Shown here piece after piece: positions 2,846 through 52,811 of a stretch of 64,000 nucleotides of DNA. The notes beneath the pieces are model-generated. The model saw only the letters and a program-made list of their open reading frames with translations. It was not told the DNA's origin and searched no databases. The DNA is from a virus. Numbering within the stretch: the first letter of the stretch is position 1; every line of letters starts with the position of its first letter. The translations under genes were made by a program, and so were the position numbers. Location: the IMG/VR virus record IMGVR_UViG_3300045988_073134; one strand, given 5' to 3'.

Positions 2846-3004
2846 CTACTTTTTAGGTGGACTCTGTAGCTCCTCCAATTGCTTTTTAAGTTGTTCCACC
2901 TGTTGTTTATAAATCTCACATTGAGCCTCAGTCATCACCTTCTTTTCAATGGCGTCTGCCAATTCTCTTTTGTAAATTGCATTTAATAAATTTAAAGCAT
3001 CCAT
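2846..3004 (-). CDS. Small coiled-coil protein (52 aa), below the ORF-track size cut-off
   Basis: Hand translation gives MDALNLLNAIYKRELADAIEKKVMTEAQCEIYKQQVEQLKKQLEELQSPPKK. RBS GGAGGT 3011-3016 with a 6-nt spacer. The stop lies 8 nt before the xhlA-like ATG. Confidence 0.5.
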   Translation of the reverse strand: MDALNLLNAIYKRELADAIEKKVMTEAQCEIYKQQVEQLKKQLEELQSPPKK

Positions 3005-3047
3005 TGCATTACCTCCTATATATCATGTTTCATATTGTATATTAGTT

Positions 3048-3076
3048 AAAAAAGGACTAGATTAAACTAGTCCTTT
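3048..3076 (-). terminator. Intrinsic terminator after the 635-aa fibre gene
   Basis: The minus strand reads AAAGGACTAG-TTTAAT-CTAGTCCTTT followed by TTTAAC. The core stem is 7-10 bp at 3051-3060 / 3067-3076. Confidence 0.55.
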
Positions 3077-3081
3077 AAATT

Positions 3082-4989
3082 TTATTCTGTATAAGTAACT
3101 TTCATTGTTACACTACCACTACATACTGCATAACTACCTGAGTTATATGCTGACTGAATACCAAATCCTTTTACAGTTCCGTTTGATATTGCGTTTAATA
3201 TAGTACTGTTAGTAATAGTTAATTTACCACTATCACCAACTGCAATGCTAACACTGCCACAACTAGAACCGTATGAAGGTTTTCCACTTGGTCTACTTGC
3301 GTAGTTATGAGTTTTTACTTGTAATGCTACTCCACTATAAGAACCACCGGAAATTCTCTTAATAGTAAGCTCAATTTTACTAATAGATTTACCATTAAAT
3401 TGGTTAAATTGACTACCAAAGAACCAGCAACCATTGCAATCACCATAACCATAGTCACCCTGTCTACAAGTATTATCTTTTTTCCAGTTGTTATATACTG
3501 AACTTCTATAAGTATCACCACTGTTAGATTTTATTGTTACAGTTTTAGTAGTTGATGTAGAAGGCGCTTGGTTGCCGTCTGTAGTTTGGTTACCACTTTC
3601 GTGGTTAACATTTGTAGGAGCTATTATTTGACCTGGTAAACTTACGTGAGTATTGGATTTACTACCACCGCATTGTGGACTGTTTGCTATTGTAATGGTT
3701 CCACCACTTACTGCCTCAAATCCATACTGACTACATACACCACTTGAACTTGCAGCGTGTATTCTACCTCCTGCGTTTGCTCTAAAACCTACATCACAAT
3801 TGATAAATTGTAAATCTTTATAATATCCACTGGCGTATGAATCGCAAGCCATACCTACAATTGTAGTGGCACTACCGGAAGCATTATCGCTACCATATAT
3901 TTTTAAACTATACGCATTAATGCAGGAACTTTCCTGTCCAACCAAACTAGCCGTTCTACTGGCAACTGGACAACCTGTACTTGGGTGTATTACACCAGTC
4001 CTTGCAGTTTCATATTTCATATAGCCTCCATATACATACACTTTAATACTACTCATATAATTTCTAATCCATCCATATACAGTATTGCCGTCTAAATATA
4101 AGTTAATTCTACCACTGGAAAAATATCTAATGTCTATATTTTCATAAATATCTTCTTGTATCCATATATCTACTACTTTACCATTTAAGAACTTAGGTAA
4201 GGCCTCTAATGCTCCACTTACTGTAGCGAATGACACACCGTCATATAATTCATTATCATCACTACCGCTACTATTAATTGATATTTGAATGTCATCTTCC
4301 AAAGTACTTGGATACTGAGCACTATTTATTTTGTTGGCAGTGATTGTATCGGCAGTAAGTTCTCCCTCAACTGAGAAACTATCTCCGATAACCTCAGAAC
4401 CTTGTATTTGAGCACCGACTATATTACCTTCACCGTCTACACTAAATGTATTACTTTGGTTCCTAAAGGTGCTACCTATTATAGTTGCACCTGTAATAGT
4501 TTTACCGTCTATGGCACCGTCAACTATCATATCTCCATTTACTTTTACTTGCTTAGTTATAATCGCTAACATCTCGTCTGTTAAGGTCATTGAACTTGCA
4601 CTATTACCTCTAACCATCCATGAAAATCTATCAGCCAATTGTTCATATTTTGTTTCATTGGCTTTTATTACTGAACTTTTGGTAATAGTCGCAACTGGGA
4701 TAGTTTTATTCACAGTTGATTTTCCTTCTATATTAATAGTGACGTGTATTTCTCCTGCATTGCCAGTTGCAGTAAGGAGAGTGATAGTTTTATAATCACT
4801 CTCTAGTTTTGCAGTACAGTTAGTGGTATCTGTTATAGTTACTTTATATTGTCCTGTAGTTGGAGTCGTATTAACTGCGACTAATGGAGTAGTTCCATTG
4901 TATATATCAATTTTAGTATTTTTACTTGTTTGTTCTACCACAACTTTATTAACTGTTGTAGTAAACGTATTACTATAAATCTCACTCAT
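3082..4989 (-). CDS. Putative tail fibre / receptor-binding protein
   Basis: 635-aa ORF rich in Gly, Ser and Thr within the distal tail gene block. I recognise no catalytic motif, so the call is positional. Confidence 0.45.
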   Translation of the reverse strand: MSEIYSNTFTTTVNKVVVEQTSKNTKIDIYNGTTPLVAVNTTPTTGQYKVTITDTTNCTAKLESDYKTITLLTATGNAGEIHVTINIEGKSTVNKTIPVATITKSSVIKANETKYEQLADRFSWMVRGNSASSMTLTDEMLAIITKQVKVNGDMIVDGAIDGKTITGATIIGSTFRNQSNTFSVDGEGNIVGAQIQGSEVIGDSFSVEGELTADTITANKINSAQYPSTLEDDIQISINSSGSDDNELYDGVSFATVSGALEALPKFLNGKVVDIWIQEDIYENIDIRYFSSGRINLYLDGNTVYGWIRNYMSSIKVYVYGGYMKYETARTGVIHPSTGCPVASRTASLVGQESSCINAYSLKIYGSDNASGSATTIVGMACDSYASGYYKDLQFINCDVGFRANAGGRIHAASSSGVCSQYGFEAVSGGTITIANSPQCGGSKSNTHVSLPGQIIAPTNVNHESGNQTTDGNQAPSTSTTKTVTIKSNSGDTYRSSVYNNWKKDNTCRQGDYGYGDCNGCWFFGSQFNQFNGKSISKIELTIKRISGGSYSGVALQVKTHNYASRPSGKPSYGSSCGSVSIAVGDSGKLTITNSTILNAISNGTVKGFGIQSAYNSGSYAVCSGSVTMKVTYTE

Positions 4990-5002
4990 TATTAACCACC
5001 TC

Positions 5003-7450
5003 CTAGCTTGTTTTAGTTAAATTACAATATGATAAATATTTTCGTGGGTCATAACATCCATATCTTATTTTAGTAGTTTCAGCAACAAAAGTATATTTAG
5101 TATTATAATCACCTGTAGTAGTAAATAACTCTTTAACAAAGTTATCATTATCATCATAAGCATAACACCATACCCATGTAGCATCCATTTGTAATGAATA
5201 GTGTGCGCCTTTCTCAACTGTTACTGGATTGACTGTCGCCCAGTCATCTGTACTATTAACTATCTTATGTGTACTATTATCCACTTTTTTACCATATGTC
5301 ATATTTCCTATAGTACCTGGTTCAGGTTCAGGAGTTGTACCGCCTGAATCTTTAGCTCTCAATACCCCATTTGATACAGTTAATGTAATTTGTTTTGATA
5401 CACCTGAATGTGAAGTACCTGTAATTACTACTTCACCATTAGCACCTGCATAACTACTACATAATCCACTATGACAAGTTACTAGGCTTGTATTACTAGA
5501 TTGCCATGTTAGTGATTTATTTATACAGTTATCATTAAAAGTAGGTCTTACCATACAGTTATGTGAACTATCATTAGCATCCATAGCAGCTAGTGTAAAG
5601 TCACTAGAGTTTAATACTACATTATCAGTACTTAATGGATAATATTTTACCCAGTCAACGTATTGTGTGATTTCAGTAGTATTACTGTCAGGTGTGCCAC
5701 CACTAGCACCAATTGCTTGATTAAGTAAAATAAAGTGTGGTATATGGAATGCTCTATTATCAGTAGCACTTGTTCTGCTTAATTCATGTCCATCTATAGA
5801 GAACACTAAACTACCATCTGTATTCCATTCCATAGCAAACTCGTGCCAATCACCAGTAGGATAATTATTATACCATACACGGCCGCTTTCTTCTTTTTCA
5901 TTAAAGAATGTACCACAAGTTAGTTTGCCATTATAAAATTCCATTACGTCGAATTCACCACAATAAGCCCACCATTCACCTAATGTATCAGGGCTACCAT
6001 TTTCTTTATATCCAAATTCAAAACTATCTCCTAAAGTCCAAAATGCGCCAAAAGAACCATTCCAATTACATGGTCTAACTCTAGCCACTATTTTACCATA
6101 CATAAAAGCAAAATGTCCTTTAGAGATAATTGATGCAGATGTCCAAGAACCATCACTTGCTTTTTTACCTCTTAGTGCTAATATGCCATCATTGATTTCA
6201 GCATTAGTATTTGTATATCTTTGAGTTTCATTATTTCTAACATAACCTAATTCATATCCCCATTTATTTGAGTCTACACTACTGCCTGAGAAGTCATCTA
6301 TTACATAAGCACCAGTAGAATCTAGTAATGAGCTTGAACTTGAGCCATTTTCTTTTAATGTACCTGTGATAGCAGTACTTGCATCACCAGTAGCACATAT
6401 TAATATTTTAGTTATATTTGCTGGTACAGTAAACGTATATGATAAGGCTTTATTTGACCAGTCATCTGTGTTGCCTTCGACATATGATACATAAGAATTT
6501 GATGAATTATAATAACAAACACATACATAATTAGCTTTATTAAGATTTATAGTATAAGATTTACCGGCAGTTACACTTATATAATTTAATGTACTATAAT
6601 ATGTACCATCTGTGGTATCTGTAATTACACCATCATTAAGTCTTTTATATTGAGTAAAAGTTAAGCCATCTTTATTTACTAAATTAACTGTAAATACATT
6701 ACTTGTCTTAGTAGTGCCTTTTGCAGTTGTAACTCTTATAGCCATTTGATAAGTTCCAGCACCGGCTTTATTATCATGTTTAAATTTATAATGTGTTCCA
6801 TTAGCAGTTACATCCTCTGTTTTATCGTAGAATGTATTTCCTCCATCCCATGAGACTTCATGTTTTACTACTGCTATATTTGTACTGTATTCAATATAAA
6901 ATTCAGTTTTTTCAGTTTGAGTTATGTTTGCTATATTACTTATAGTTAGAGTTTCAGGTGTTACTGGAATTGCCTCAGTTGTAACAGTGATAGTGATGTT
7001 GCCAGTAACATTTGGTATATTAATATTACTACCTCTAATAACAGTATTACTTATATCAGTTCCACCCATCACAACACTAATATTTTTTACATTATAGCCT
7101 TCATTAGCTGCTACAATAGTTGAATAGCTAGAACCCTTTTTAATAGATTTAGTTGAGTTACTACTTGTTGCCTGATTTAAAGTGTATGTTATAGTGTAGT
7201 ATGTATCGGTAGTTCCTCCTCCACTCTCAGTATATACACATTTTAACTTACAATTACTATAAGTTCCATTATCCCAGTTACTAATATTGAAAACGGCACT
7301 AGACTTAGTAAAGGAAGTGGCACTTATATAAGTACTACCTCCATCTTTACTAAGTAGAATGTCGGAGATATTAGTAACATCGGTTGTAAAATTCACGGTC
7401 AAAGTATCTCCAGATGTACTGGGATTACTTGATACAGTTATTGTTGCCAT
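5003..7450 (-). CDS. Tail fibre protein with an internal GH16 (laminarinase-type beta-glucanase / ConA-like) domain
   Basis: Contains GAFWTLG followed by GEFDVMEF, which matches the GH16 ExDxxE catalytic signature (E-F-D-V-M-E). The N-terminal part is Ig-like and Thr-rich. The GH16 region is encoded at about 5636-6310. Confidence 0.65.
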   Translation of the reverse strand: MATITVSSNPSTSGDTLTVNFTTDVTNISDILLSKDGGSTYISATSFTKSSAVFNISNWDNGTYSNCKLKCVYTESGGGTTDTYYTITYTLNQATSSNSTKSIKKGSSYSTIVAANEGYNVKNISVVMGGTDISNTVIRGSNINIPNVTGNITITVTTEAIPVTPETLTISNIANITQTEKTEFYIEYSTNIAVVKHEVSWDGGNTFYDKTEDVTANGTHYKFKHDNKAGAGTYQMAIRVTTAKGTTKTSNVFTVNLVNKDGLTFTQYKRLNDGVITDTTDGTYYSTLNYISVTAGKSYTINLNKANYVCVCYYNSSNSYVSYVEGNTDDWSNKALSYTFTVPANITKILICATGDASTAITGTLKENGSSSSSLLDSTGAYVIDDFSGSSVDSNKWGYELGYVRNNETQRYTNTNAEINDGILALRGKKASDGSWTSASIISKGHFAFMYGKIVARVRPCNWNGSFGAFWTLGDSFEFGYKENGSPDTLGEWWAYCGEFDVMEFYNGKLTCGTFFNEKEESGRVWYNNYPTGDWHEFAMEWNTDGSLVFSIDGHELSRTSATDNRAFHIPHFILLNQAIGASGGTPDSNTTEITQYVDWVKYYPLSTDNVVLNSSDFTLAAMDANDSSHNCMVRPTFNDNCINKSLTWQSSNTSLVTCHSGLCSSYAGANGEVVITGTSHSGVSKQITLTVSNGVLRAKDSGGTTPEPEPGTIGNMTYGKKVDNSTHKIVNSTDDWATVNPVTVEKGAHYSLQMDATWVWCYAYDDNDNFVKELFTTTGDYNTKYTFVAETTKIRYGCYDPRKYLSYCNLTKTS

Positions 7451-32012: not shown

Positions 32013-32936
32013 TTAATTGTTATTAGATACATTTTCCAATCTTTTATATATTATATTCTCTATATACTCATTGTTTATCTCTGTCGCTATATAATTTCTA
32101 TTATACTTTACACAAGATATTATCTCTGAACCACTACCTGCAAAGGGTATATAAACTAAATCATTTGGATTACTTGAGGCATTTATTATTCTGTCTGTTA
32201 CATCTTGTGGTTTCTGTGTTTTATGACCATATCTAACTTTATCAGGAATAAAATCCCATACATCAGTTACCCCAACAGGAAGATTAAATATATATCTTTC
32301 ATTTTTATATTGCTCTATAAGAGTATTGTATTCGTTTCTTATGTTGAATAATTTACAAATCTTTATCCATTGTTTTTCTGTTGGTACTTGAATTCCTTTT
32401 AATTTATTATGCACCCATCCAGTAGGTTTACCATTTTTACTCAATTCTAATTTTGAAATGTCTGATTGTGTTAAATTTAATTCTTTCATTTTTTGTTTCA
32501 TAATTCTACTAAATGGAGTATCAAAGAACTCATCTTGTTTTACATAATAAAGCAAATATTCGCTTGCTGTTGGAAACATTCTTAATTTATCATTTGTTCT
32601 GCCGGCTATTGCTCTTAATCCTTTAGATAAGGTTATATTCTGCCTAAAGTTTAATTGTTTATCAAATATTAATACCTTTTGCTTAGATAATATATCAAAA
32701 TTACCATAACAATAAAATACCCCTGTTGGTTTTAATACTCTCACACATTCATTAAACCATTGTTGTGTCCAATTAAGATATTCATCCTCAGTCTTCCATT
32801 GTTTATCCCACTTCTCGTTTATAGCCTTATAATATGGTGGGTCAGCTATTATTAGGTCCACACATTCATTTGGTAGAGTTCTCATATATTCCACACAATC
32901 ACAGTTATATACTTTATTTAATTCCAAAATAATCAT
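32013..32936 (-). CDS. Orphan DNA methyltransferase (beta-class N6A/N4C, DPPY)
   Basis: DLIIADPPYY is near the N-terminus and IPFAGSGSE near the C-terminus. No restriction endonuclease partner is seen. RBS GGGAGG touches ATG 32936, so TTG 32927 may be the real start. Confidence 0.75.
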   Translation of the reverse strand: MIILELNKVYNCDCVEYMRTLPNECVDLIIADPPYYKAINEKWDKQWKTEDEYLNWTQQWFNECVRVLKPTGVFYCYGNFDILSKQKVLIFDKQLNFRQNITLSKGLRAIAGRTNDKLRMFPTASEYLLYYVKQDEFFDTPFSRIMKQKMKELNLTQSDISKLELSKNGKPTGWVHNKLKGIQVPTEKQWIKICKLFNIRNEYNTLIEQYKNERYIFNLPVGVTDVWDFIPDKVRYGHKTQKPQDVTDRIINASSNPNDLVYIPFAGSGSEIISCVKYNRNYIATEINNEYIENIIYKRLENVSNNN

Positions 32937-35418: not shown

Positions 35419-35922
35419 CTATTGGTTTTTATATTCTTTTTCCACCAACCATAGTAAACAATAATTAGCTAAGTCCAATATAGTGTCATCTATTTTCTCG
35501 TCCTTTACCTTTTGTTCGTTGTTTGGGTTGCACAATGTTAATAGTCTATTATATTTGTCTGTAATCCTTACTAAGAATGATAAATCACCAAATTTTTTAT
35601 ATGTGTCTGCAACACTATTACCATAGTCATTATTTTTATTTTTATAAGTTTCCTCTAAGTTGTTTAATATATATTGGTATATATCCAATCTATCCATTTT
35701 AGCTTGGTTTATTGTTAGTGCCGGTTCTAACATATCTTTATTCCATACATAAGGGTTATTATAAGTAGCTAAATGGTAATCCCCGTCTTGGTCTATATAC
35801 TCTATAGTATCAACTAAACCTCTAAATTGCAGCATATCTTCTATAACACTACACTCTCCATATTTTTCACCTGCTTGTATACTATCTTTTATTTTAACTA
35901 AATCACCTATTTTATATTCCAT
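35419..35922 (-). CDS. DUF1599-like (nucleotide-modification-associated) protein with an N-terminal SH3-like domain
   Basis: The C-terminal half ETYKNKNNDYGNSVADTYKKFGDLSFLVRITDKYNRLLTL matches my recollection of the DUF1599 KNxDYG...R..DK..R signature. Confidence 0.45.
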   Translation of the reverse strand: MEYKIGDLVKIKDSIQAGEKYGECSVIEDMLQFRGLVDTIEYIDQDGDYHLATYNNPYVWNKDMLEPALTINQAKMDRLDIYQYILNNLEETYKNKNNDYGNSVADTYKKFGDLSFLVRITDKYNRLLTLCNPNNEQKVKDEKIDDTILDLANYCLLWLVEKEYKNQ

Positions 35923-40501: not shown

Positions 40502-41502
40502 AAAATAATCAACTCGCTTTCAATCAAATTTTTAGGATTCTGCTCATATTTTATCTTGTCTAATAAGTTATTTACTCCGTCTAATATATCTACTAAGTCA
40601 TATTTTGAAGTATTAGTTGCTATGTGGATACACTGTCTCATTATGTCAGTTGGTATCATTGTTAGTTCTTTATTTCTTGTTATGTTCAGCTTACATAGGT
40701 CTAGTACAAACTTATTTAAATCTTTTACAAATAGTTTTAAGTCCTTGCCGTCTCTGTATATACTGTCTATTATTTGTATTGGCTCATCTGCTTGTTTATT
40801 TATAATACCTTGTACTATCTTTAATAGATGTTCATAGTTAGTAATACCTAGACAATCTAATACAGCTTGTAATGTAATATCAGTTGTGTAACCAAGTACT
40901 GTATCTAGTTTCATTATGGCATCTCTCATTCCACCGTCGGCCAACTTAGCTATATACTCCAATGCCTCTATGTCATAAGTTATTTTTCCCTCTTGTTGTA
41001 ATATATATTTCAATCTTTGTACTATCTCAAACTGAGGAATACGTTTAAAGTCAAATCTTTGTAGTCTGCTCAATATAGTTGCAGGTATTTTATGAGGGTC
41101 AGTAGTACATAGTATGAATATAACTCCTTTTGGTGGTTCTTCTAATACCTTTAATAGTGCATTAAATGCACCAATGCTTAACATGTGCACCTCGTCTATT
41201 ATATATACCTTGTATTTACTATCCAGGCTCTTCATTCTACAGTCGTCAATTATACTACGTATATTATCAACCCCGTTGTTACTGGCACCGTCTATTTCAA
41301 TTGGTTTTCCTTTACCACCATTTACATCACTTGCAAATATTCTTGCACTCGTAGTTTTCCCAGTACCACTTGAGCCACAAAATAGATAAGCCTGTTTTAT
41401 CTCACCAGTTTGTAATTGATTACTTAATACCTTTTTCACATTATCTTGACACACTACATCCTCAAAATGTTGTGGTCTATATTTAACAGCTAAATTCATC
41501 AT
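40489..41502 (-). CDS. dnaX: DNA polymerase III gamma/tau-like clamp-loader ATPase
   Basis: KYRPQHFEDVVCQ, Walker A GSSGTGKTT, IIDEVHML, NALLKVLEEPP and ILSRLQRF. ATG 41502 has RBS GGGAGGA at 41511-41517. Confidence 0.8.
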   Translation of the reverse strand: MMNLAVKYRPQHFEDVVCQDNVKKVLSNQLQTGEIKQAYLFCGSSGTGKTTSARIFASDVNGGKGKPIEIDGASNNGVDNIRSIIDDCRMKSLDSKYKVYIIDEVHMLSIGAFNALLKVLEEPPKGVIFILCTTDPHKIPATILSRLQRFDFKRIPQFEIVQRLKYILQQEGKITYDIEALEYIAKLADGGMRDAIMKLDTVLGYTTDITLQAVLDCLGITNYEHLLKIVQGIINKQADEPIQIIDSIYRDGKDLKLFVKDLNKFVLDLCKLNITRNKELTMIPTDIMRQCIHIATNTSKYDLVDILDGVNNLLDKIKYEQNPKNLIESELIILCLK

Positions 41503-42001
41503 ATAATATATCCTCCCTTTGTATATGTTTATAAGTTTCATAATAATAACAACTTATTATAGTACTTTCCTTTATTTCTGGAAATAAATTACATACTTCA
41601 AATCTACTTAATCCAGCTAACCTAAGGCGTCTAATTAAAATAACCTGGTCATCTGTTAATTTACAATTACCACTTTTACCTCGTTGATACCCATGTTTAT
41701 ATGAATGCTGTGTATTATGGGCTATTGTACACCATTCCAAATTACTTACAGTATTATCCAATTTATTACCATTTATATGATTAACACAAGGATAATTATT
41801 GGCATTGGGTAAAAACGCTTCGGCTACTAATCTATGTACTCTTTTATAATAACGTTTATAGTTAACACATAAACATATTTCCTCATAACCACTAGACCCT
41901 ATAACAGTACTCATTATTTTATTATACTTATTTTTTATACGTCCTTTATTACTTACATAATAAATCCGTCCTTGTATATTAAAAGGTCTCCACTCCTCCA
42001 T
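41483..42001 (-). CDS. HNH_3/NUMOD4-type homing endonuclease
   Basis: WRPF...YYVSNKGRIKN (NUMOD4-like) and VNHINGNKLDNTVSNLEWCT (HNH_3-like). It overlaps both neighbours. Confidence 0.7.
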   Translation of the reverse strand: MEEWRPFNIQGRIYYVSNKGRIKNKYNKIMSTVIGSSGYEEICLCVNYKRYYKRVHRLVAEAFLPNANNYPCVNHINGNKLDNTVSNLEWCTIAHNTQHSYKHGYQRGKSGNCKLTDDQVILIRRLRLAGLSRFEVCNLFPEIKESTIISCYYYETYKHIQREDILYDEFSC

Positions 42002-44157: not shown

Positions 44158-44634
44158 TTAATACATCTCCTTATTAGTTTCTTGGTATTCTTTGTATAGT
44201 TCTCTTACTTTGTCTCTAGATTTAGGGTCATGCTCCACGGGAACCACTTCTCTATTCTTACAATCTCCTTTTATAAAATCATATATAAAATCATCTCTAA
44301 AACCTATTTCTTCAGCATCTTTTACATCACCAGCATATATCACTTTATCCAAGTTAGCCCATATTATTGCAGCCATACACATTGGACAAGGATACCCAGT
44401 TGCATATAGAGTATATCCTGTCAAATCAAAAGTATTTAGTATCTTACACGCAGTTCTTATAGCACATATCTCAGCATGAGCAGTTGGGTCATTATTACCT
44501 AATACATGATTACTATCTACACAAATTATTTCTCCAGTTTTACTATTTACTATAGCAGCTCCAAAGGGACCTCCTATTCCTTTACTCATAGTCATTTTAG
44601 CTTGTTTAATTCCTAAATCCATTGGTTTACTCAT
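44158..44634 (-). CDS. CDA-fold zinc deaminase, closest by eye to guanine deaminase (GuaD type) rather than dCMP deaminase
   Basis: GGPFGAAIV, NDPTAHAEICAIR, YPCPMCMAAIIWA, KVIYA and AEEIGFRDDFIYDF all parallel B. subtilis GuaD as I recall it. ATG 44634 has RBS AAGGAGTG. The track start at 44643 is a GTG. Confidence 0.6.
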   Translation of the reverse strand: MSKPMDLGIKQAKMTMSKGIGGPFGAAIVNSKTGEIICVDSNHVLGNNDPTAHAEICAIRTACKILNTFDLTGYTLYATGYPCPMCMAAIIWANLDKVIYAGDVKDAEEIGFRDDFIYDFIKGDCKNREVVPVEHDPKSRDKVRELYKEYQETNKEMY

Positions 44635-44664
44635 ACTTATCACTCCTTACAGTTTATTTATCTT

Positions 44665-44714: not shown

Positions 44715-45278
44715 TTATTTACCAGTAGTATATTTAAAAATATATCCACCTGTAGAGTTCCATACACCATTACATACATCCACAATATACTGTCGTTTAA
44801 TACCTGTTTGTTTGGAGGTTTCACCTGCATTAATAAACGTTTTAACGTATTGTCCTTGTTTGGTATACATCTCTACGGGTTTTAAATCGCGTTCCCAACG
44901 TTTTTTACTCATATTTGATAAATGTTCTTTACTACTATAATCTCTGTTCCCACATTCTAAGGCGTGTATATTATTATGTTGTACCGTACACCATTCTAAA
45001 TTTTCTACTCGATTATCATCTCTTATACTATTAATATGATTAACTACGGGCAGATTATTTGGGTTAGGTATAAAGGTCATTGCAACTAATCTATGCACTT
45101 GGTAGTAATAACATTTACCTTCCTTATATAAATTTACTTTTAAATAACCATCCTTACTATATGGCAAGTGCATCCAATGTTTTCGTTTAACACCATATAT
45201 TTTCCCATCTCTTGTTATTTTATATAGACCTTCAAAACCAGGTATATCATATAATTGATTATCGATTCGTAGTTCCAT
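44715..45278 (-). CDS. HNH_3/NUMOD4-type homing endonuclease
   Basis: IPGFEGLYKITRDGKIYG and VNHINSIRDDNRVENLEWCT. ATG 45278 has RBS AGAGG. It overlaps the 3' end of dut. Confidence 0.7.
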   Translation of the reverse strand: MELRIDNQLYDIPGFEGLYKITRDGKIYGVKRKHWMHLPYSKDGYLKVNLYKEGKCYYYQVHRLVAMTFIPNPNNLPVVNHINSIRDDNRVENLEWCTVQHNNIHALECGNRDYSSKEHLSNMSKKRWERDLKPVEMYTKQGQYVKTFINAGETSKQTGIKRQYIVDVCNGVWNSTGGYIFKYTTGK

Positions 45279-45717
45279 AACCGCCTCTATCTGGGTTGCC
45301 AAGCTCATCCACCTCCTCTATGTCTAAAGGAGTACTTTTTTTCACACTTATCTGAACTAATCTATCACCTTTTTTAAATGCTCCATATCTAGTACTATAA
45401 AACATTGCTAACCATTCATCATTATCTCCACAATACGTATCATCAACTAATCCCATGCTATTAGTAAGTAATAGACCAGTATTTTTAAAGGTGCTACTAC
45501 GTGGTAGTATATACCCCTCGTAGCCTTTTCCCATGTCCATTGCAAATCCTAAATTGACTACTATTATATCTCCAGGTGAGAACCTTATTATATTACCTGT
45601 AGGTTCCACACCATTCACACTTGCAGTACGTACATAACAGTCATACCAATTACCATTTTTACTTTGTGGAGCTTTACCTCCTTCAAATAATCTTACTTTT
45701 ACTTTTTTATTTGCCAT
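45259..45717 (-). CDS. dut: dUTPase (trimeric type)
   Basis: GYILPRSS, GLVDDTYCGDNDEW and C-terminal DRGGYGTT match dUTPase motifs. Confidence 0.75.
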   Translation of the reverse strand: MANKKVKVRLFEGGKAPQSKNGNWYDCYVRTASVNGVEPTGNIIRFSPGDIIVVNLGFAMDMGKGYEGYILPRSSTFKNTGLLLTNSMGLVDDTYCGDNDEWLAMFYSTRYGAFKKGDRLVQISVKKSTPLDIEEVDELGNPDRGGYGTTNR

Positions 45718-47480: not shown

Positions 47481-48539
47481 CTATTCTTCATCGGCAGTTG
47501 CCAACAACATTATACTATCTTTAGTTTGTAGTTTAAGTGTTTCCTCTGCCCCAAATTCTATAGTTACATTAGGTTCATCTACTGCACTAAATAAGTCCTT
47601 CATATAAGCGCTATTTACACTGATAATAAATGGCTCTGATAAATCTATCGGCTTAGTATATTCAATCACCTCTAGGGACTTACTAGAAGTTGATATGACC
47701 ATATTAGTTTCACTAAATACTAAATCTATAATACCTTTATCGTATATACCTATAAATAAATCTAATCTATCTAATGCTTGTAAAACTTGCTTAACGTCTA
47801 CTTCACAAGTATGAGGATAATTACTAGTCAATAATGGAAATACATCGGGATACTCATCTGCTCCCTCTTGTAAGGCTCCAGTAATAGTTATATTTTGTCC
47901 TACCGCTCTCAATGTTGAGCAATCTTTATCTACCATAAATTTTATGTTCTCAACATCTATTGATTGTAATAAGTTTGCTAATGTTGGAGGTATTAATAAT
48001 TCTATTTCTTCTAAATCTTTACCGTCTAACTCAGTACTATATACTTTTATTGCATCAGCAGTAACTATCTCACTATCTCTTACTAAGTAACTAAATAATA
48101 CACCATCTGTTGGTACATTACTCTTAGCTTTAGCGCCACTAGTTATTGCATTACTTAAAGTTGTATAAGTTATAGTAAATTCCTTATCAACATCTATGTC
48201 TAAAGTTGGGTAAACTTCATCATTAACTATTTCAACTTTGTAATTACCATTACCTTTTACTTCTAAGTAGTTATCTGTCAATTTAAGTGTCACTGTATCT
48301 TTAGTAGTTTTATTAATTAATTTACTAAATTGGTCAGCTTTTACTATAACTGACATGTTCTCATCACATTCTGTTGGGTGATTAATTGTTATGAAGTTTA
48401 TGCCGTCTGTTGCTCTCAATGATAATCCTTCTACACTAAAATCTAACTCATAGTAATTAGTTATTTCTAATATTTTACTTGGTTTACAACTACTTACCGC
48501 TTTCAACATATCTTTTAATATACTTGTATTTACTTTCAT
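47481..48539 (-). CDS. dnaN: DNA polymerase III beta-like sliding clamp
   Basis: 352 aa with DnaN-like periodicity: ILKDMLKAVSS...LRATDGINF, EYPDVFPLL and VKQVLQALDRLDLF. Confidence 0.6.
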   Translation of the reverse strand: MKVNTSILKDMLKAVSSCKPSKILEITNYYELDFSVEGLSLRATDGINFITINHPTECDENMSVIVKADQFSKLINKTTKDTVTLKLTDNYLEVKGNGNYKVEIVNDEVYPTLDIDVDKEFTITYTTLSNAITSGAKAKSNVPTDGVLFSYLVRDSEIVTADAIKVYSTELDGKDLEEIELLIPPTLANLLQSIDVENIKFMVDKDCSTLRAVGQNITITGALQEGADEYPDVFPLLTSNYPHTCEVDVKQVLQALDRLDLFIGIYDKGIIDLVFSETNMVISTSSKSLEVIEYTKPIDLSEPFIISVNSAYMKDLFSAVDEPNVTIEFGAEETLKLQTKDSIMLLATADEE

Positions 48540-48550
48540 AATTTTCCCTC

Positions 48551-49462
48551 CTAAAATAATCTTTTTTGGTATCTGTTATTACCTTTATATTTATAGTTAT
48601 CTGCCCAATCTTTAAAGTAATTTATATTGTATAATTGTCTACTCTCTTGGTTTTCCATACATTGCTCTATTGATGTTCCATATGAAACGCATTGCTCATC
48701 TATTTGTCTCTGTACTAACTGTGGTAATTTATTGTAATGACTGACTTTGTGTTGTACTTTTGGTGATACACATATTCTACCATATTTGGTACATAACTCT
48801 CCATTTATTGCAGCCATTAACCACGTTGTACTGTCTGCACTCTCAAAGGGATAATTTTCTAATATGTCTAAGTTAGTCATCCCAAACGCATGAACTTTTA
48901 CTTTTGGATTCTTACTTTGTTGTATAATCTTAAAACATTGTTTATACCAATCTTCTTTTACTGAGCTGGCCAATCCAACAGTTCCACCAAGTCCTATATA
49001 TGGAATATGTTTCCCATGAAACGTTGCCTCTAACATATTTTGTAGATGTCTAAAGTCTTCTCCAATATGAAATACTGGTAATAATTTGTCTTTGTCTCTT
49101 ACTTGCTCTCTCATATATAAATAATTGTGCCATGACTTCTCAGGCGATTCACGTTGCTCTAATAATGTAGGTTTTCTTTTTAACTCACCTGGAATGTCAT
49201 CTACACTTGCAAACAAAGTAAATTTGTCTGTATTATCATTTATAAACTTTATATAATCTTCTACGTCTATATGTTTATTTTTACTCCAAGCACTGTATGC
49301 TCCCGAGTCTATAAATAACTTATTATTGGACATTACTTCTAAAAACTTCATTATAACTTTTCTGTCATTTATTTGTGAAAATAGTACATCACATTCTCTT
49401 TTTATTATTATGTCATTCTGAGTATTTACTTTACTTCCCGCTAAATATAAGTTAAAACTCAT
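48551..49462 (-). CDS. dpdA: DpdA-like DNA guanine transglycosylase, paralogue 2 (TGT fold)
   Basis: LFIDSGAYSAW, GLGGTVG, HAFGMT and ESADSTTW parallel the TGT motifs DSGGFQ, LxGVG and DxFDS. It lies downstream of the preQ0 genes. Confidence 0.6.
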   Translation of the reverse strand: MSFNLYLAGSKVNTQNDIIIKRECDVLFSQINDRKVIMKFLEVMSNNKLFIDSGAYSAWSKNKHIDVEDYIKFINDNTDKFTLFASVDDIPGELKRKPTLLEQRESPEKSWHNYLYMREQVRDKDKLLPVFHIGEDFRHLQNMLEATFHGKHIPYIGLGGTVGLASSVKEDWYKQCFKIIQQSKNPKVKVHAFGMTNLDILENYPFESADSTTWLMAAINGELCTKYGRICVSPKVQHKVSHYNKLPQLVQRQIDEQCVSYGTSIEQCMENQESRQLYNINYFKDWADNYKYKGNNRYQKRLF

Positions 49463-49474
49463 TCAGCTCACCTC

Positions 49475-50398
49475 CTAAAATAATCTCTTTTGAAACCTAT
49501 TGTTACCTTTGTATTTATACTTATCTGCCCAGTTTTGTATATAATGAATATTAACAACAGTTCTCAAGTTAGTATTTTCTACACATTCTTCTAATGTCAA
49601 ATTACATTCAGCTATTTGTGCTTCCACTTGTTTCTGTACATCTTTTGGTAATTTTAATATGTGGTTAGGTCTGTGTTGAGCAGAATTAGATAATCCTACA
49701 ACACCATATTTTGTAAGAATATTTCCATTAATTGCCAACATCATCCAGGTAGTACTATCAGCACTTGTAAATGGATAATTCTCTAATATATTCAAACTAG
49801 TCATTCCAAAAGCATGTGTTTTTATATTTGGGTTATTACTCTCTTTTATTACTTTAAAACATTGTTTATACCAATTACTCTTTACTGAACTTGGTCTAAC
49901 TCCAACTGTTCCTCCTAACGCTATATATGGTATATGTTTTCCGTCTAATATTGTATTACACATATTACTCAGATGTTTAAAATCTTCTCCCATATGAAAA
50001 ACTGGTAATAATTTGTCGGGTTCTTTAACTCGCTCTCTCATATATAAATAATTTTCCCACGATAATAATGGAGATTGTTGTTTCTCTTTTAGTGTTGGTG
50101 TTCTCGTTAATTCTCCTGGTATATTATCTACACTAGCAAACAATGTTAACTCATTGGTATTCTCATTTAAATAATTTATATACTCATCTGTATCAATACT
50201 TTTACCTCTTGACCAGGCACTATATGCTCCACTATCTACAAATACTTTTGTACCTGGTTTTTCTTTAGCTTGTTGTAACCATAATTTTCCTCTACTCCTA
50301 TCACGTAGTTGAGAATATAATCTACAACTTCCTCTTGCCATCATGGCTTCATCAGCTTCAATATCTCTCACTCCTGCGAAGTATAAATCAAAACTCAT
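49475..50398 (-). CDS. dpdA: DpdA-like DNA guanine transglycosylase, paralogue 1 (TGT fold)
   Basis: VFVDSGAYSAW, ALGGTVG, HAFGMT and TSADSTTW. It is roughly half to 60 percent identical to the next gene by eye and shares its C-terminus KYKGNNR(F/Y)QKRLF. Confidence 0.6.
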   Translation of the reverse strand: MSFDLYFAGVRDIEADEAMMARGSCRLYSQLRDRSRGKLWLQQAKEKPGTKVFVDSGAYSAWSRGKSIDTDEYINYLNENTNELTLFASVDNIPGELTRTPTLKEKQQSPLLSWENYLYMRERVKEPDKLLPVFHMGEDFKHLSNMCNTILDGKHIPYIALGGTVGVRPSSVKSNWYKQCFKVIKESNNPNIKTHAFGMTSLNILENYPFTSADSTTWMMLAINGNILTKYGVVGLSNSAQHRPNHILKLPKDVQKQVEAQIAECNLTLEECVENTNLRTVVNIHYIQNWADKYKYKGNNRFQKRLF

Positions 50399-50419: not shown

Positions 50420-50456
50420 ACATATATAGTATATAAAAAGTGGCCAGTTTACTAAC
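50420..50456 (-). promoter_or_regulatory. 37-bp promoter motif copy P7
   Basis: The + strand reads acatatatagtatataaaaagtggccagtttactaac. It lies upstream of dpdA paralogue 1. Confidence 0.55.
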
Positions 50457-50463
50457 TGACCAC
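50435..50463 (-). terminator. Terminator hairpin embedded in P7, after folE
   Basis: The minus strand reads GTGGTCAG-TTAGTAAA-CTGGCCAC followed by TTTTTATATACT, with one mismatch. Confidence 0.5.
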
Positions 50464-50471
50464 TTAATTTT

Positions 50472-51050
50472 TTATCTAAATAATTCATATGCTTCTTGTC
50501 TTAATTCAATATTAGTTTTAAATCTACCTCTTATAGTTGCAGTTCTTGTTTTAGCTCCACGAGATTTAATTCCTCTTGCAGTCATACAACTATGTTCACC
50601 TTCTACTACTACAATTATATCTTCTGTATCTAATATCATCTGTAGTATATCAGCAATATCTTCTCCAATACGTTCTTGTAATTGTAGTCTCTTAGCTACC
50701 ATGTCTGCCACTCTAGCAATTTTACTAAGTCCTATAACCTTTCCGTTTGCTATGTATCCAACACTGACAGTCATATTATACATTAATGCCAAGTGGTGTT
50801 CACAATAACTAAAAATTGGTATTTTAGATACAGTTACAAGGTCATCTGCTCCCTCATCATAAAAACATTTATCGAACATCTCAGCTATTTCTTCATTTGT
50901 ATAGTTCATACCTTCAAATACTTCTTGATACATTTTAGCGACTCTTTTAGGAGTCTCTTTTAGTCCTGCTCTGTCTGGGTCATCTCCTAACGCCACTAAT
51001 ATATCTCTTACTGCACTTTCAATTTTCTTAGTATCTATCATATTATACAC
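50472..51050 (-). CDS. folE: GTP cyclohydrolase I
   Basis: [34 protein letters not shown] and [11 protein letters not shown]. Confidence 0.85.
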
Positions 51051-51699
51051 CTCTCATATTTGGATTCCATATTATTTTATGCAACTGAACTTGTACTTTT
51101 ACATTGTTTAATCTATTATCCAGTATATACTCAACTAATTCTTTTGGTTCTATTTTACCAAATACTGGTGATACATAAGGCTGAGCTTTACATTCGCTCT
51201 CCTCTAGTATATATTCCATTTTCTCTAATTCATTGTAATTACTAACTACAAATTTAATTACATCTTTAGGTTGAAGTAATTTTAAATTCCACAACTTCAT
51301 TTTATCTTCCATGCCACTACTTGCACATTTATAATCCATTGTGAATATTACTTTACTATTATACTTGTATTCCCAAAACTTATCTAAATCAACTGCTCCA
51401 TTAGTTTCTATATTTACTTCAACATCATTAGCTACTAAAGAGTTGATTAAATCTTTTACATTCTCATGTATTAATGGTTCTCCTCCAGTTAATGTTACAC
51501 GAGGAACTCCGTATGTTAATACCTCATCTAATATATCCATTAATGGCATTTCAGTATATTCACTATTTTCACAACTATAACGAGTATCACAGTAACTACA
51601 TTTTAAATTACAGCCATACAGTCTTATAAAGACTGTAGGCAACCCAGTTCTAACTCCTTCTCCATCTATACTAAGAAATATTTCATTTACTTTATACAT
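51043..51699 (-). CDS. queE: 7-carboxy-7-deazaguanine synthase (radical SAM)
   Basis: [42 protein letters not shown] 51699 lies just after the queD stop. The track start at 51765 is inside queD. Confidence 0.85.
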
Positions 51700-51700
51700 T

Positions 51701-52075
51701 TTATCTTCCACAATTACATCCCCCTTTAACTTCATATATTGCAGTGTTATGAGCACTTTCCTCAACGCTTACTCTAGTACATTTTACATATATGCCATCA
51801 AACATACCAGTTAATTGGTCAGCTATCCATTTAGCAATATTCTCAGCAGTTGGATTAACTCCAACAACATCATTTATATACGCATGGTCTAATTGGTTTA
51901 CAACTCTTTTTATATGAGTAAAATCCATTACCATTCCATACTCAGTTAATTCTTCACTCTCTATTTGAACTTCTATATTCCAGTTATGACCATGTAGGTT
52001 ACTACATTTACTTTCATAAGGTAAATCTAATTTATGAGCTCCTGCAACTTCCATTTTCTTTATTATTTTATACAT
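51701..52075 (-). CDS. queD: 6-carboxy-5,6,7,8-tetrahydropterin synthase
   Basis: 124 aa with SKCSNLHGHNW and the PTS-fold size. Confidence 0.8.
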   Translation of the reverse strand: MYKIIKKMEVAGAHKLDLPYESKCSNLHGHNWNIEVQIESEELTEYGMVMDFTHIKRVVNQLDHAYINDVVGVNPTAENIAKWIADQLTGMFDGIYVKCTRVSVEESAHNTAIYEVKGGCNCGR

Positions 52076-52076
52076 A

Positions 52077-52811
52077 TTATTTTTCCTCCCAATCTATTTT
52101 TATTTTATATGGTACAGGGTCAACTGCTCCATTTGCCTTAAAGGCATTTATTCTATCTATACAAGTACCACAAGTACCACAACAAGGTCTTTCACCTTCA
52201 TAACAGCTATGAGTTAATTCGTATGGCACTTTTAAATCTAATCCCAAACGTACAATATCTTTTTTAGTCATATTTACAAAAGGAGCATGAACTCTAACTT
52301 TGTCATAAGTACCAATTGATATAGCTTTATCCATAGTCTCAGTAAATTCAGGACTACAGTCAGCATAGGCTTCACCGGCTGCATCATCTACATGAGCTCC
52401 TAAATATATAGTAGCAATTGTGTCTGGTTTGTCTTCAACTAGACTCATCGCTATGGCAGCTACACTACTTAATAATAATCCATTTCTAAATGGTACATAA
52501 GTTCTTACCATTCCCTCTCCATCTTTGGCTATTTGGTCTGCATAACTCTCATGTCTAATTTCTTCTGTACTATTAGATAATAGAGAACAGTTACTATATG
52601 CAAATATTTTACTTAAATCTATTTCTATATGTTTTACATCATAATACTCAGCTATATCTTTTGCACATTTCAATTCAATACTGTGCTTTTGTCCATAATA
52701 CGCACTAACTGTAACAACATTCTCTTTTCCATATAAATCTACTGCTAATCCCACTGCTGTTGTACTATCTACACCACCACTATTTAATACTACTGCAATT
52801 TCTTTACTCAT
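52077..52811 (-). CDS. queC: 7-cyano-7-deazaguanine (preQ0) synthase
   Basis: PP-loop VVLNSGGVDSTT and C-terminal zinc motif SCYEGERPCCGTCGTCIDR. Confidence 0.85.
   Translation of the reverse strand: MSKEIAVVLNSGGVDSTTAVGLAVDLYGKENVVTVSAYYGQKHSIELKCAKDIAEYYDVKHIEIDLSKIFAYSNCSLLSNSTEEIRHESYADQIAKDGEGMVRTYVPFRNGLLLSSVAAIAMSLVEDKPDTIATIYLGAHVDDAAGEAYADCSPEFTETMDKAISIGTYDKVRVHAPFVNMTKKDIVRLGLDLKVPYELTHSCYEGERPCCGTCGTCIDRINAFKANGAVDPVPYKIKIDWEEK

Follow-up and report, generated by a model that had tools for sequence, protein, structure and literature searches.

Organisation of the locus

The window, a stretch of 64,000 nucleotides (IMG/VR virus record IMGVR_UViG_3300045988_073134), comes from an uncultured, gut-type, lytic phage of low GC content and Firmicutes type, distantly related to Streptococcus phage Dp-1 and Clostridium phage phiCTP1. 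Two adjacent genes on its minus strand, here called U and D, are 12 nt apart and lie directly after folE-queE-queD-queC, which make up a complete preQ0 pathway within the replication module. The features of this region are the following:

47481-48539, minus strand: phage sliding clamp (DnaN-like), directly downstream of D (NCBIfam dnaN, E=3e-15)
48551-49462, minus strand: D, downstream DpdA paralogue, 303 aa, the conserved accessory copy, always second of the tandem (ORF; PHROG 887; AlphaFold2; Foldseek TGT matches)
49463-49474, minus strand: 12-nt spacer between the stop of U and the start of D, with the GGAGG for D, sequence TAGGAGGTGAGCTGAATG
49475-50398, minus strand: U, upstream DpdA paralogue, 307 aa, the hypervariable allele class and also the sole dpdA of sibling phages (ORF; PHROG 887; AlphaFold2; Foldseek TGT matches)
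50438-50465, minus strand: terminator-like hairpin between folE and U, 12-bp stem and T-run (scan; RNA fold)
50472-51050, minus strand: folE, GTP cyclohydrolase I, first preQ0 step (NCBIfam NF006826, 241.5 bits, cutoff 162)
51043-51765, minus strand: queE, CDG synthase of the 'Clostridial' type (TIGR03963, 275.1 bits, cutoff 260.1)
51701-52075, minus strand: queD, CPH4 synthase (TIGR03367, 95.5 bits, cutoff 89.25)
52077-52811, minus strand: queC, preQ0 synthase, plain form without Gat domain (TIGR00364, 161 bits, cutoff 150.3)

The true start of queE is likely near 51708. The hairpin has a folding energy of -20.1 kcal/mol (z=-3.8) and none of its shuffled versions was as stable (0/200). No QueF, ArcS, Gat-QueC or other tailoring enzyme was found in the window. 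It does have a guanine-deaminase-like gene (44158-44643), which might raise the level of modification by taking away the guanine set free. A YhhQ-type transporter of precursors occurs in some relatives.

A sequence-only reading of this DNA had placed two neighbouring ORFs of 303 and 307 aa here, and they were found exactly at those positions. Each gene is preceded by its own GGAGG ribosome-binding site and the 12-nt spacing is identical in all tandem loci. The pair does not stem from faulty assembly, because it was seen again in independent IMG/VR, ENA and Logan assemblies. By BLASTP the two proteins align end to end with 172 of 307 residues identical (56%), 75% positives and four gap positions (E=6e-134), in agreement with the earlier estimate by eye of about half or more. 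The common termini described in that reading are also real, with D/N and F/L variants at the N-terminus, MSF(D/N)LY(F/L)AG, and an F/Y variant at the C-terminus, KYKGNNR(F/Y)QKRLF.

Both U (E=5e-55) and D (E=7e-58) match PHROG 887, annotated 'queuine tRNA-ribosyltransferase'. In tblastn searches they aligned over their full length with the DpdA of Dp-1 at 42-44% identity (E of 2e-71 and 2e-76) and at ~31% with the region annotated as the CAjan DpdA gene (CAjan/Seurat-type; E~6e-26). The Pfam scan of the two proteins assigned no family, and megablast of the locus against GenBank phages gave no match. The search for a host through bacterial genomes returned only ~40% relatives, all single-copy, in MAGs of Clostridia, Bacilli, Lachnospiraceae and Izemoplasmatales.

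Fold and active site

The AlphaFold2 models of U and D have pLDDT values of 90.4 and 91.6, respectively. A profile search of PDB sequences gave chance matches only, and a fold search and hhalign to E. coli TGT were therefore used. For both models the top PDB matches in Foldseek were the TGT of Z. mobilis, the archaeal (archaeosine) TGT and the mammalian TGT (E~1e-8, probability 1.0, TM~0.6). U and D are DpdA1-type guanine transglycosylases with the TGT fold.

Among 63 relatives, with identity down to 28%, the sole invariant columns are D55, D91, H135, H195, G198, S212 and D214 (U numbering), and all seven residues are present in both U and D. The aspartate triad D55/D91/D214 of U corresponds to D52/D88/D210 of D, with predicted roles as acid/base, in base recognition (D91, a role assigned from motif and offset only) and as nucleophile. 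The codons of the predicted acid/base and nucleophile are:

48833-48835, minus strand: Asp210 of D, in SADSTTW, predicted nucleophile (invariant column)
49307-49309, minus strand: Asp52 of D, in FIDSGAYSAWS, predicted general acid/base (invariant column)
49757-49759, minus strand: Asp214 of U, in SADSTTW, predicted nucleophile (invariant column)
50234-50236, minus strand: Asp55 of U, in FVDSGAYSAWS, predicted general acid/base (invariant in 63 diverse family members)

By hhalign, D55 of U falls on Asp89 in LTDSGGFQVFS of E. coli TGT (E=0.063), and D214 falls on D264 in MFDCV with GGTVG on GGLAVGE (E=0.0028). The probabilities of these alignments are low because the template was a single sequence. 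The residue offsets relative to the NCBIfam DpdA model agree with the aspartate assignments. As for the two histidines, H135 and H195, invariant in the family and present in U and D, His196 has been described in the DpdA1 of phage 9g (PMC6884629), and the conserved DpdA1 histidine is absent from DpdA2. No conserved Cys columns that could form a structural Zn site (Cys/His cluster of the C-terminal subdomain) were seen in three family alignments, and the clade appears to lack the Zn subdomain.

The active-site motifs of the two copies are nearly identical: DSGAYSAWS, SVD(N/D)IPGE, FH(M/I)GEDF, LGGTVG and SADSTTW. The divergence between U and D is concentrated in peripheral segments, at residues ~10-50 and ~220-270, and residues 1-50 and 231-270 hold an excess of both fixed differences and variable sites. 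Of the 29 fixed differences between U and D, three (N92D, S201N and T211E) adjoin active-site residues.

The earlier statement that both copies retain TGT-like motifs and that neither is decayed holds. Neither copy lacks the catalytic aspartates in the alignment of the 63 relatives, and dN/dS is 0.05-0.22 overall (0.12-0.22 for U and 0.05-0.13 for D). Decay of one copy to a pseudogene is ruled out by the invariant residues and these ratios. Both proteins look functional, as predicted from the retained residues and from purifying selection.

Distribution, recombination and age of the pair

Within metagenomic phages the pair is restricted to a single clade, where it is common and was found in many metagenome assemblies. 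Every D-type gene examined (30-plus) is placed immediately downstream of one of U type and none occurs without U, while sibling phages of identical synteny carry U alone. For example, the U allele of one tandem-bearing locus (L013) is 88-98% identical at the DNA level to the sole dpdA of four loci of identical synteny (L010-L012 and L014). The junction between single-copy L011 and tandem L013 holds too few diagnostic sites to tell deletion of D from its insertion. U alleles at 72-100% identity combine freely with D alleles at 85-100%. One conspecific has a single U/D mosaic gene in place of the pair, the family has many mosaic alleles (P0003, P0011, P0018 and P0036), and natural chimeras exchange the C-terminal third, with a U head and a D tail. 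The locus is dynamic: U is a core gene, D is an accessory gene, and the copies recombine into single mosaics. No fused two-domain U-D protein was present among the best 150 of 5882 relatives; some of these 150 have short partial N- or C-terminal repeats.

The synonymous divergence between U and D is ~1.26 (dS). Within every locus the two proteins are 56-59% identical and homogenisation was not seen. The duplication is old and the copies have been kept distinct. A recent duplication in situ is ruled out by this dS and by two well-separated clades in the tree, which was built by neighbour joining (a distance method) and is affected by recombinant sequences. The suggestion of a tandem duplication thus stands for the side-by-side paralogues; it does not stand as a recent event or one peculiar to this genome, since the divergence is deep and the pair is widespread in the clade. 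Foreign acquisition of D was also considered and is unsupported, as U and D have the same GC and GC3 as the neighbouring genes and D is nested in the DpdA radiation of the phage group itself.

Between U and its orthologues identity is only 72-74%, in phages that share 86-98% in the flanking genes. D-type proteins keep 85-100% identity across phages, and in distant phages D (85%) lies above the genomic background given by the clamp (63%), with the extra conservation of D relative to U being partly built into the clade thresholds.

Relation to known systems

U and D resemble the phage DpdA1 enzymes of 9g, CAjan, iggy and Dp-1 in their PHROG 887 family, TGT fold and invariant Asp and, probably, His residues. 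The genes likewise lie beside folE-queD-queE-queC and near a processivity factor, and a post-replicative exchange of G for preQ0 is predicted. They differ in that the window has two diverged tandem paralogues and not one gene. Moreover the clade of the window shows an optional second copy, allele replacement and U/D mosaics.

The bacterial DpdA of the Dpd restriction-modification system (S. Montevideo, PMC10164549) is also a TGT-like DNA transglycosylase that inserts preQ0. It shares with U and D the three aspartates and the histidine of the active site, and the NCBIfam match is weak with consistent offsets. However, NF041059 scores D at 25.7 and U at 20.1 bits with a cut-off of 200, and U and D are ~100 aa shorter and have no conserved cluster of Cys for the structural Zn. 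Near U/D no partner ATPase DpdB was seen. A further likeness is found in eukaryotic QTRT1/QTRT2, where two paralogous TGT-fold subunits occur per genome (7owz, 7b2i and 7nq4 are among the fold matches), although U and D both keep the catalytic residues and their substrate is presumably DNA.

The sequence-only reading held that phage systems are described with a single dpdA. This agrees with the part of the literature that was searched, in which paired dpdA is not described, and with GenBank phages homologous to the U/D pair, none of which has two copies. It does not hold for Microbacterium phages Megan (NC_073368) and Nicole72 (OR159674), which carry an independent pair of full-length DpdA paralogues, 48% identical (E=4e-69). 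Both paralogues are annotated in Megan, an isolated phage, as its genes 2 and 4, and no paper was found on the Megan/Nicole72 pair. It has DSGAF and TTDSST motifs and adjoins QueC-like, QueD, QueE and FolE genes, as the window pair does with its own motifs and preQ0 genes. Nevertheless it belongs to actinophages, is of independent origin, has PHROG 7068 as best match and went undetected with the U/D proteins of the window as query. A 70-aa ORF lies between its genes, a ParB-like nuclease is adjacent and its QueC-like protein has 462 aa. The two 'DpdA-like' genes of Arthrobacter phage Sonali were rejected as a precedent, since they are not paralogues (BLASTP E=14; different PHROGs).

A proposed pair of sequence-context specificities

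Of the three functions suggested in the sequence-only reading (hetero-oligomer, two sequence contexts, two substrates), the evidence leans to two sequence contexts and away from both a different base substrate and an obligatory heteromer. That the two are independent preQ0-DNA transglycosylases with different sequence-context specificity is an explanation to which we give about an even chance, and the difference in their motifs is our inference. Each enzyme would act alone after replication, swapping guanine in double-stranded phage DNA for preQ0 by the double displacement of TGT, with the Asp of SADST as nucleophile and the Asp of DSGA as acid/base. U and D would read different short sequence contexts, set by the diverged peripheral segments (~10-50 and ~220-270), and together may raise the fraction and the variety of modified G positions. 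Wider modification of G could then allow more restriction or CRISPR-type defences to be evaded. Hypervariable alleles of U, a D that may be present or absent, and mosaics of the two would represent alternative 'specificity repertoires' shuffled by recombination under the pressure of host defences.

The DpdA1 enzymes described so far each act at a specific motif and saturate it, so that the breadth of the motif caps modification. DpdA motifs are known for two enzymes only, CAjan and iggy: the iggy enzyme modifies GA only, at 97% of GA sites and 16.5% of G, and that of CAjan modifies GA plus GGC/GGT. The presence of U as sole dpdA in L010-L012 and L014 counts for independent action over an obligate complex, as do the free pairing of U and D alleles and the lack of a fusion protein. 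The near-identity of the active-site motifs, the peripheral differences, the chimeras that exchange the C-terminal third and the outlying divergence of U count for the specificity idea. The fact that D is never without U would also fit a dependence of D on U, for instance in a heteromer, and N92D, S201N and T211E beside the active site leave room for a difference in substrate or chemistry.

Alternative explanations

A U:D heterodimer, either obligate for D or facultative, in which D tunes the specificity or efficiency of U inside one complex, is in our opinion unlikely. Enzymes of the TGT family are active as dimers (PMC6884629), one subunit holding the substrate in place while the other catalyses. 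In mammals two paralogues make up a heterodimeric TGT (PDB 7owz and 7b2i, among the fold matches), and such an arrangement would agree with the 30-plus loci in which D never stands without U, with a 12-nt spacing that suits coupled, equimolar expression, and with U-head/D-tail chimeras that suggest structurally compatible parts. Both U and D, however, keep every catalytic residue, unlike QTRT2, the accessory subunit of eukaryotic TGT, which is without them. Moreover U is the only copy in sibling phages, and a D of almost constant sequence (92%) stands beside U alleles that differ widely (72%), with no co-evolution in evidence. No 'Rosetta stone' fusion exists among the best 150 of 5882 relatives.

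It is less probable again that the second copy is redundant, serving as dosage or simply tolerated, with its main role that of a recombination template diversifying a single essential gene. D is indeed dispensable in nature, given the single-copy siblings and the conspecific in which the pair has collapsed into a mosaic, and mosaic alleles are common in the family. Nevertheless purifying selection on D (dN/dS 0.05-0.13) is stronger than on many neighbours, its conservation in distant phages exceeds the genomic background (85% against 63% for the clamp), and U and D remain 56-59% identical at every locus, with no homogenisation. Their divergence is also old (dS ~1.26), and redundant copies seldom last that long in compact phage genomes.

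We consider it improbable that U and D insert different bases, for example preQ0 in one case and host-made preQ1 or CDG/ADG in the other, which would place two 7-deazaguanines in the DNA. Substrates do shift within DpdA subfamilies, since the DpdA2 of VH7D inserts preQ1 and preQ0 less well (PMC10516641), and Dp-1, the closest characterised relative, has dPreQ1 in its DNA. The substitutions N92D, S201N and T211E flank active-site residues and the YhhQ-type transporter of some relatives could supply a precursor. However, the pocket motif equivalent to GGLAVGE is LGGTVG in both U and D and ISPAND in the dPreQ1-associated Dp-1 clade, the remaining pocket motifs are identical between the two copies, and the window was found to hold neither QueF nor another tailoring enzyme. 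That one copy acts on DNA and the other on host or phage tRNA, like a canonical TGT, is scarcely credible: the family descends from tRNA-guanine transglycosylases and early Dp-1 annotations assumed tRNA modification, but U and D have no PUA or other tRNA-binding domain and apparently no Zn subdomain, they are alike in architecture, tail and replication-module context, and the DpdA literature consulted records no action of any phage DpdA1 on tRNA.

C-terminal tails and the sliding clamp

Both proteins end in the same short motif:

48554-48568, minus strand: C-terminal Q-K-R-L-F of D, the same candidate clamp-binding tail as in U (pLDDT ~40)
49478-49492, minus strand: C-terminal Q-K-R-L-F of U, disordered tail, candidate clamp-binding motif (pLDDT of the last residues ~43)

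The consensus for beta-clamp binding is Q-phi-x-L-F, in which positions 1, 4 and 5 weigh most (bioRxiv 10.64898/2026.05.27.728225). The tails of U and D have Q at position 1 and L-F at positions 4-5, in a terminus modelled with low confidence, and depart from the consensus at position 2, where Lys stands in place of an aliphatic residue. A Q..LF ending is present in 115 of 118 close family members; in the wider family it occurs in only 16 of 135, and 78 of 135 end in LF. The DpdA of CAjan ends in VMELF. These comparisons make the Q-K-R-L-F tails candidate sliding-clamp-binding motifs. In addition, the neighbourhood of DpdA and clamp is kept in Dp-1 (DnaN gp10) and CAjan (processivity factor gp33).

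A 'tool-belt' can be imagined in which the dimeric clamp ring holds U and D by their tails, so that two preQ0 motifs are written behind the replication fork. This seems to us an improbable proposal. It would account for the finding of D only beside U and the gene of the clamp, and for a neighbourhood of DpdA and processivity factor that is conserved from Dp-1 to CAjan. If true, it would couple DNA hypermodification to replication.

Biological significance

The sequence specificity of DpdA decides which defences a 7-deazaguanine phage escapes. This clade offers a natural experiment within one genomic frame, as it includes U alone, U with D, varied U with the same D, and mosaics whose breakpoints are mapped. 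Should the motifs written by U and D differ, comparing the alleles would show which parts of a DNA transglycosylase determine its specificity, and this could help in making DNA that resists restriction or Cas9. If U and D instead form a heterodimer, it would be the first among DNA-acting relatives of TGT. Should the reading as two sequence-context specificities be true, these phages would stack and shuffle modification specificities in the way that bacteria shuffle the specificity subunits of restriction-modification systems.

Tandem DpdA paralogues

Two open reading frames encoding paralogues of DpdA, the TGT-like transglycosylase that exchanges guanine in DNA for a 7-deazaguanine (preQ0 or a derivative), are adjacent to each other and are here called U (upstream) and D (downstream).

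Genes of the pair and its downstream neighbour
49475-50398, minus strand: U, 307-aa ORF, DpdA paralogue
48551-49462, minus strand: D, 303-aa ORF, DpdA paralogue
47481-48539, minus strand: phage clamp gene, directly after D

U and D are separated by 12 nt, and a GGAGG ribosome-binding site precedes each of them. The sequence-only reading had described adjoining paralogues, half or more identical, with common termini; BLASTP confirmed this over their full lengths (56% identity, 75% positives, E=6e-134), and the shared N-terminus and C-terminus, KYKGNNR(F/Y)QKRLF, are real by alignment. Both proteins matched PHROG 887 'queuine tRNA-ribosyltransferase' (E~1e-55), the bacterial DpdA model gave weak scores (25.7 bits for D and 20.1 for U, with a cut-off of 200), and a Pfam scan of the two returned no family.

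Apparent functionality of both copies

The AlphaFold2 models are confident (pLDDT 90.4 for U and 91.6 for D), and both folds match the TGT of Z. mobilis, archaeosine TGT and mammalian TGT (Foldseek E~1e-8, prob 1.0, TM~0.6). Across 63 relatives with identities as low as 28%, the sole invariant columns are D55, D91, H135, H195, G198, S212 and D214 (U numbering), and all seven residues are kept in both copies, H132 being the counterpart of H135 in D. With hhalign, D55 of U (FVDSGAYSAWS) aligns to D89 of E. coli TGT (LTDSGGFQVFS), LGGTVG to GGLAVGE and D214 (SADST) to D264 (MFDCV); probabilities against this single TGT sequence are low, and the placements are consistent with the fold matches. In bacterial DpdA the equivalent residues, Asp95 and Asp256, are essential (PMC10164549), and the aligned copies keep D55/D52, D91/D88 and D214/D210. 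No conserved Cys cluster was found in the family alignments, including that of the 63 relatives, therefore the TGT Zn site appears to be missing from this DpdA clade. The dN/dS values against orthologues (Nei-Gojobori) were 0.12-0.22 for U and 0.05-0.13 for D, similar to neighbouring genes, and GC and GC3 of both are unremarkable. Both copies look functional, and the earlier view that neither is decayed and that the TGT-like motifs are kept agrees with the invariant residues and the low dN/dS.

The tails of U (49478-49492, minus strand) and D (48554-48568, minus strand) both read Q-K-R-L-F-COOH, and the models show them as disordered. A Q..LF ending is present in 115 of 118 close relatives and an LF ending in 78 of 135 members of the wider family, and DpdA ends in QRRLF in Streptococcus phage Dp-1 and in VMELF in phage CAjan. 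As in the window, where the clamp gene follows D, DpdA has a processivity factor as neighbour in both of these phages. In the bacterial clamp-binding motif, Q-phi-x-L-F, positions 1, 4 and 5 matter most (bioRxiv 10.64898/2026.05.27.728225). Position 2 of the tails is Lys and departs from the motif, and the wider family does not share the Q throughout. The tails can be put forward, as a hypothesis only, as candidate beta-clamp-binding pentapeptides.

Genomic surroundings

The phage has a low GC content (32%) and all its genes lie on one strand. Upstream of the pair lie, in order, PolA, queC, queD, queE and folE, the four preQ0-synthesis genes (4/4) exceeding NCBIfam cut-offs, and downstream are the DnaN-like clamp, a RecB-type exonuclease, RecU, dUTPase, a deaminase and RecA. 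Since a search of the neighbouring genes turned up no QueF, ArcS, Gat-QueC or any other tailoring enzyme, preQ0 is the predicted inserted base. Among isolated phages, Dp-1/MS1, Clostridium phage phiCTP1 and Bacillus phage Flasso come closest (PolA 42-48%), with DpdA identities of 39-44% in Dp-1, MS1 and Flasso. Dp-1 has DpdA, DnaN, RecB, RecU and dUTPase in the same synteny; it encodes a QueF-like protein and dPreQ1 replaces ~1.7% of G in its DNA (PMC6884629).

A strong terminator-like hairpin (50438-50465, minus strand; 12-bp stem and T-run, z=-3.8) lies between folE and U, so that the preQ0-synthesis genes and the transglycosylase/clamp genes may be transcribed separately or attenuably. The deaminase (44158-44643, minus strand; 161 aa, CDA fold) is kept by every relative in this phage group. 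Among solved structures it matches B. subtilis guanine deaminase best (1TIY/1WKQ, E=3e-30) and plant guanosine deaminases next. As DpdA releases free guanine from DNA, this suggests removal of a product or competitor base, which would drive preQ0 insertion. A 167-aa protein (35419-35922, minus strand) with DUF1599, 'nucleotide modification associated domain 1' (E=4e-7), may provide a further nucleotide-modification function, and with an N6/N4 DNA methyltransferase (32013-32936, minus strand; PF01555, E=5e-34) the phage probably joins methylation to 7-deazaguanine modification. An HNH/NUMOD-type homing-endonuclease-like ORF (44715-45308, minus strand) lies between dUTPase and deaminase in the window and in L014, and is lacking in L011-L013 (L-numbers denote dpdA loci of related phages); a second HNH-like ORF is found at 41483-42001, and in L031 one lies between exonuclease and RecU. 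These look like mobile endonuclease genes dispersed in the replication module.

Age and distribution of the pair

U and D differ by a dS of ~1.26 (saturated) and a dN of 0.34. In a neighbour-joining family tree, which includes recombinant sequences, D-type proteins form a tight clade (>50 clusters, 84-92% identity) whose sister is the diverse U-type clade, with Dp-1-like enzymes outside both. In surveys spanning ±1.5-6 kb only, the tandem was found in 11 of 78 distinct IMG/VR family loci, all of this phage lineage, the other 67 being single copy within ±3 kb. It is common in ENA and Logan assemblies; a single D-type cluster, P0083, accounts for 323 indexed blocks there. All D-type genes examined immediately follow a U-type gene, whereas U-type genes are also found alone: L010-L012 and L014 have no D, yet share synteny and U allele with the tandem-bearing L013, and L125 and L128 are single-copy as well. 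Between the window and L011-L014 flanking proteins are 82-98% identical and D (L013) 92%, U only ~72%; against the more distant L029, identity is 85% for D, 63% for the clamp and 43% for RecU. U-D identity is 56-59% in every locus, therefore no homogenisation has taken place.

Tandem-bearing assemblies (L030, L123, L124, L144-L152) are labelled GAIO21, XIAO16 and ANDE20, which look like animal gut metagenome studies, probably pig. The window queE is of 'Clostridial' type, and the host is probably a gut Firmicute. Related tandem phages have a Vut_1/YhhQ-type 7-deazaguanine precursor transporter upstream of queC (L029, 1-123; L121, 1-93), and L029 a 303-aa HNH-QueD fusion (856-1767); the window phage has neither. 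In L124 (2319-2432) and L145 (383-496) the folE call is only a 37-aa fragment, with queC/D/E and both dpdA genes intact, which could reflect loss, a frameshift or use of host FolE instead.

Recombination and sites of divergence

Three DpdA-family proteins (P0003, P0011 and P0018) have a D-type tail on a U-type head. P0003 is encoded by the only dpdA of L031, whose phage belongs to the same species as the window phage (flanking proteins 92-100% identical). At the DNA level this gene alternates between the window's two genes in a U-D-U-D mosaic. Its main breakpoint is at ~nt 565; to the left the informative sites are 158 U, 25 D and 6 other, and to the right 116 D, 5 U and 6 other. The active-site motifs of U and D are close to identical, and both have the pocket motif LGGTVG, against ISPAND in the dPreQ1-associated Dp-1 clade. 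Between the U and D clades 29 positions are fixed differently and 65 more are fixed in D and variable in U, both classes being enriched at residues 1-50 and 231-270; the fixed differences N92D, S201N and T211E adjoin active-site residues.

Some relatives have a full DpdA domain fused to an additional C-terminal repeat of ~60 aa (P0134, P0145) or N-terminal repeat of ~45 aa (P0160, P0199, P0154), which is a partial second copy of the respective variable segment. These may be leftovers of tandem-copy recombination or ORF calls entering a decayed copy.

Other DpdA pairs

The sequence-only reading held that described phage systems have a single dpdA. This stands for the literature searched, where two dpdA genes in one phage are not mentioned, and for the GenBank phage records homologous to the pair (193 and 184), all single copy, but not for Microbacterium phages Megan (NC_073368), whose two TGT-like proteins surfaced in a viral fold search, and Nicole72, whose genes 2 and 4 encode DpdA paralogues (48% identical, E=4e-69).

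Paired or pair-like genes in other phages
670-1638 and 1834-2751: Nicole72 (L141, OR159674) DpdA paralogues, 70-aa ORF between
2930-3547 and 5917-6807: Arthrobacter phage Sonali (L140, MK411746) 'DpdA-like'/queuine tRNA-ribosyltransferase genes

The Nicole72 pair adjoins genes for a ParB-like nuclease, a 462-aa QueC-like protein, QueD, QueE and FolE. Its members are annotated as hypothetical, those of Megan as two queuine tRNA-ribosyltransferases; in GenBank the arrangement was found in those two phages only, and a literature search on it returned no paper. This pair is independent of U and D, so paired DpdA paralogues arose at least twice. Sonali was rejected as a paralogue pair because its two genes have no detectable similarity (BLASTP E=14); its gene 81 falls in PHROG 15826, a family without assigned function. 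Paired DpdA paralogues are rare among isolates and uncharacterised.

Possible roles of the two enzymes

The published DpdA1 enzymes each act on a specific motif and modify it to saturation: that of phage iggy modifies GA only, at 97% of GA sites or 16.5% of G, and that of CAjan GA plus GGC/GGT (PMC10484667). Coverage would therefore be raised most simply by adding an enzyme that prefers a different context. U and D would then be preQ0-DNA transglycosylases acting independently and recognising different sequence contexts, which would raise modification coverage. We favour this explanation, at about an even chance, because U is the sole dpdA in siblings, alleles of U and D combine freely with each other, the two active sites hardly differ and the divergence is peripheral. 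Of the proposals in the sequence-only reading (hetero-oligomer, two contexts, two substrates), the second is thus the one preferred, and that reading as a whole is supported in part.

A U-D heterodimer is rather unlikely; it has in its favour that TGTs are dimeric and that D was never seen without U. Among the best 150 of 5882 relatives there is no fused U-D protein. It is unlikely that the copies are redundant or that one serves as a recombination template, quite unlikely that they insert different base substrates, and very improbable that one acts on tRNA and the other on DNA.

Independent enzymes with different contexts remain our preferred explanation. DpdA1-type 7-deazaguanine DNA modification is of a known kind; what is new is the stacked, recombining transglycosylase pair. 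Its value lies in a natural allelic series (U alone, U with D, different U alleles and mosaics), which makes the sequence specificity of DpdA directly testable.
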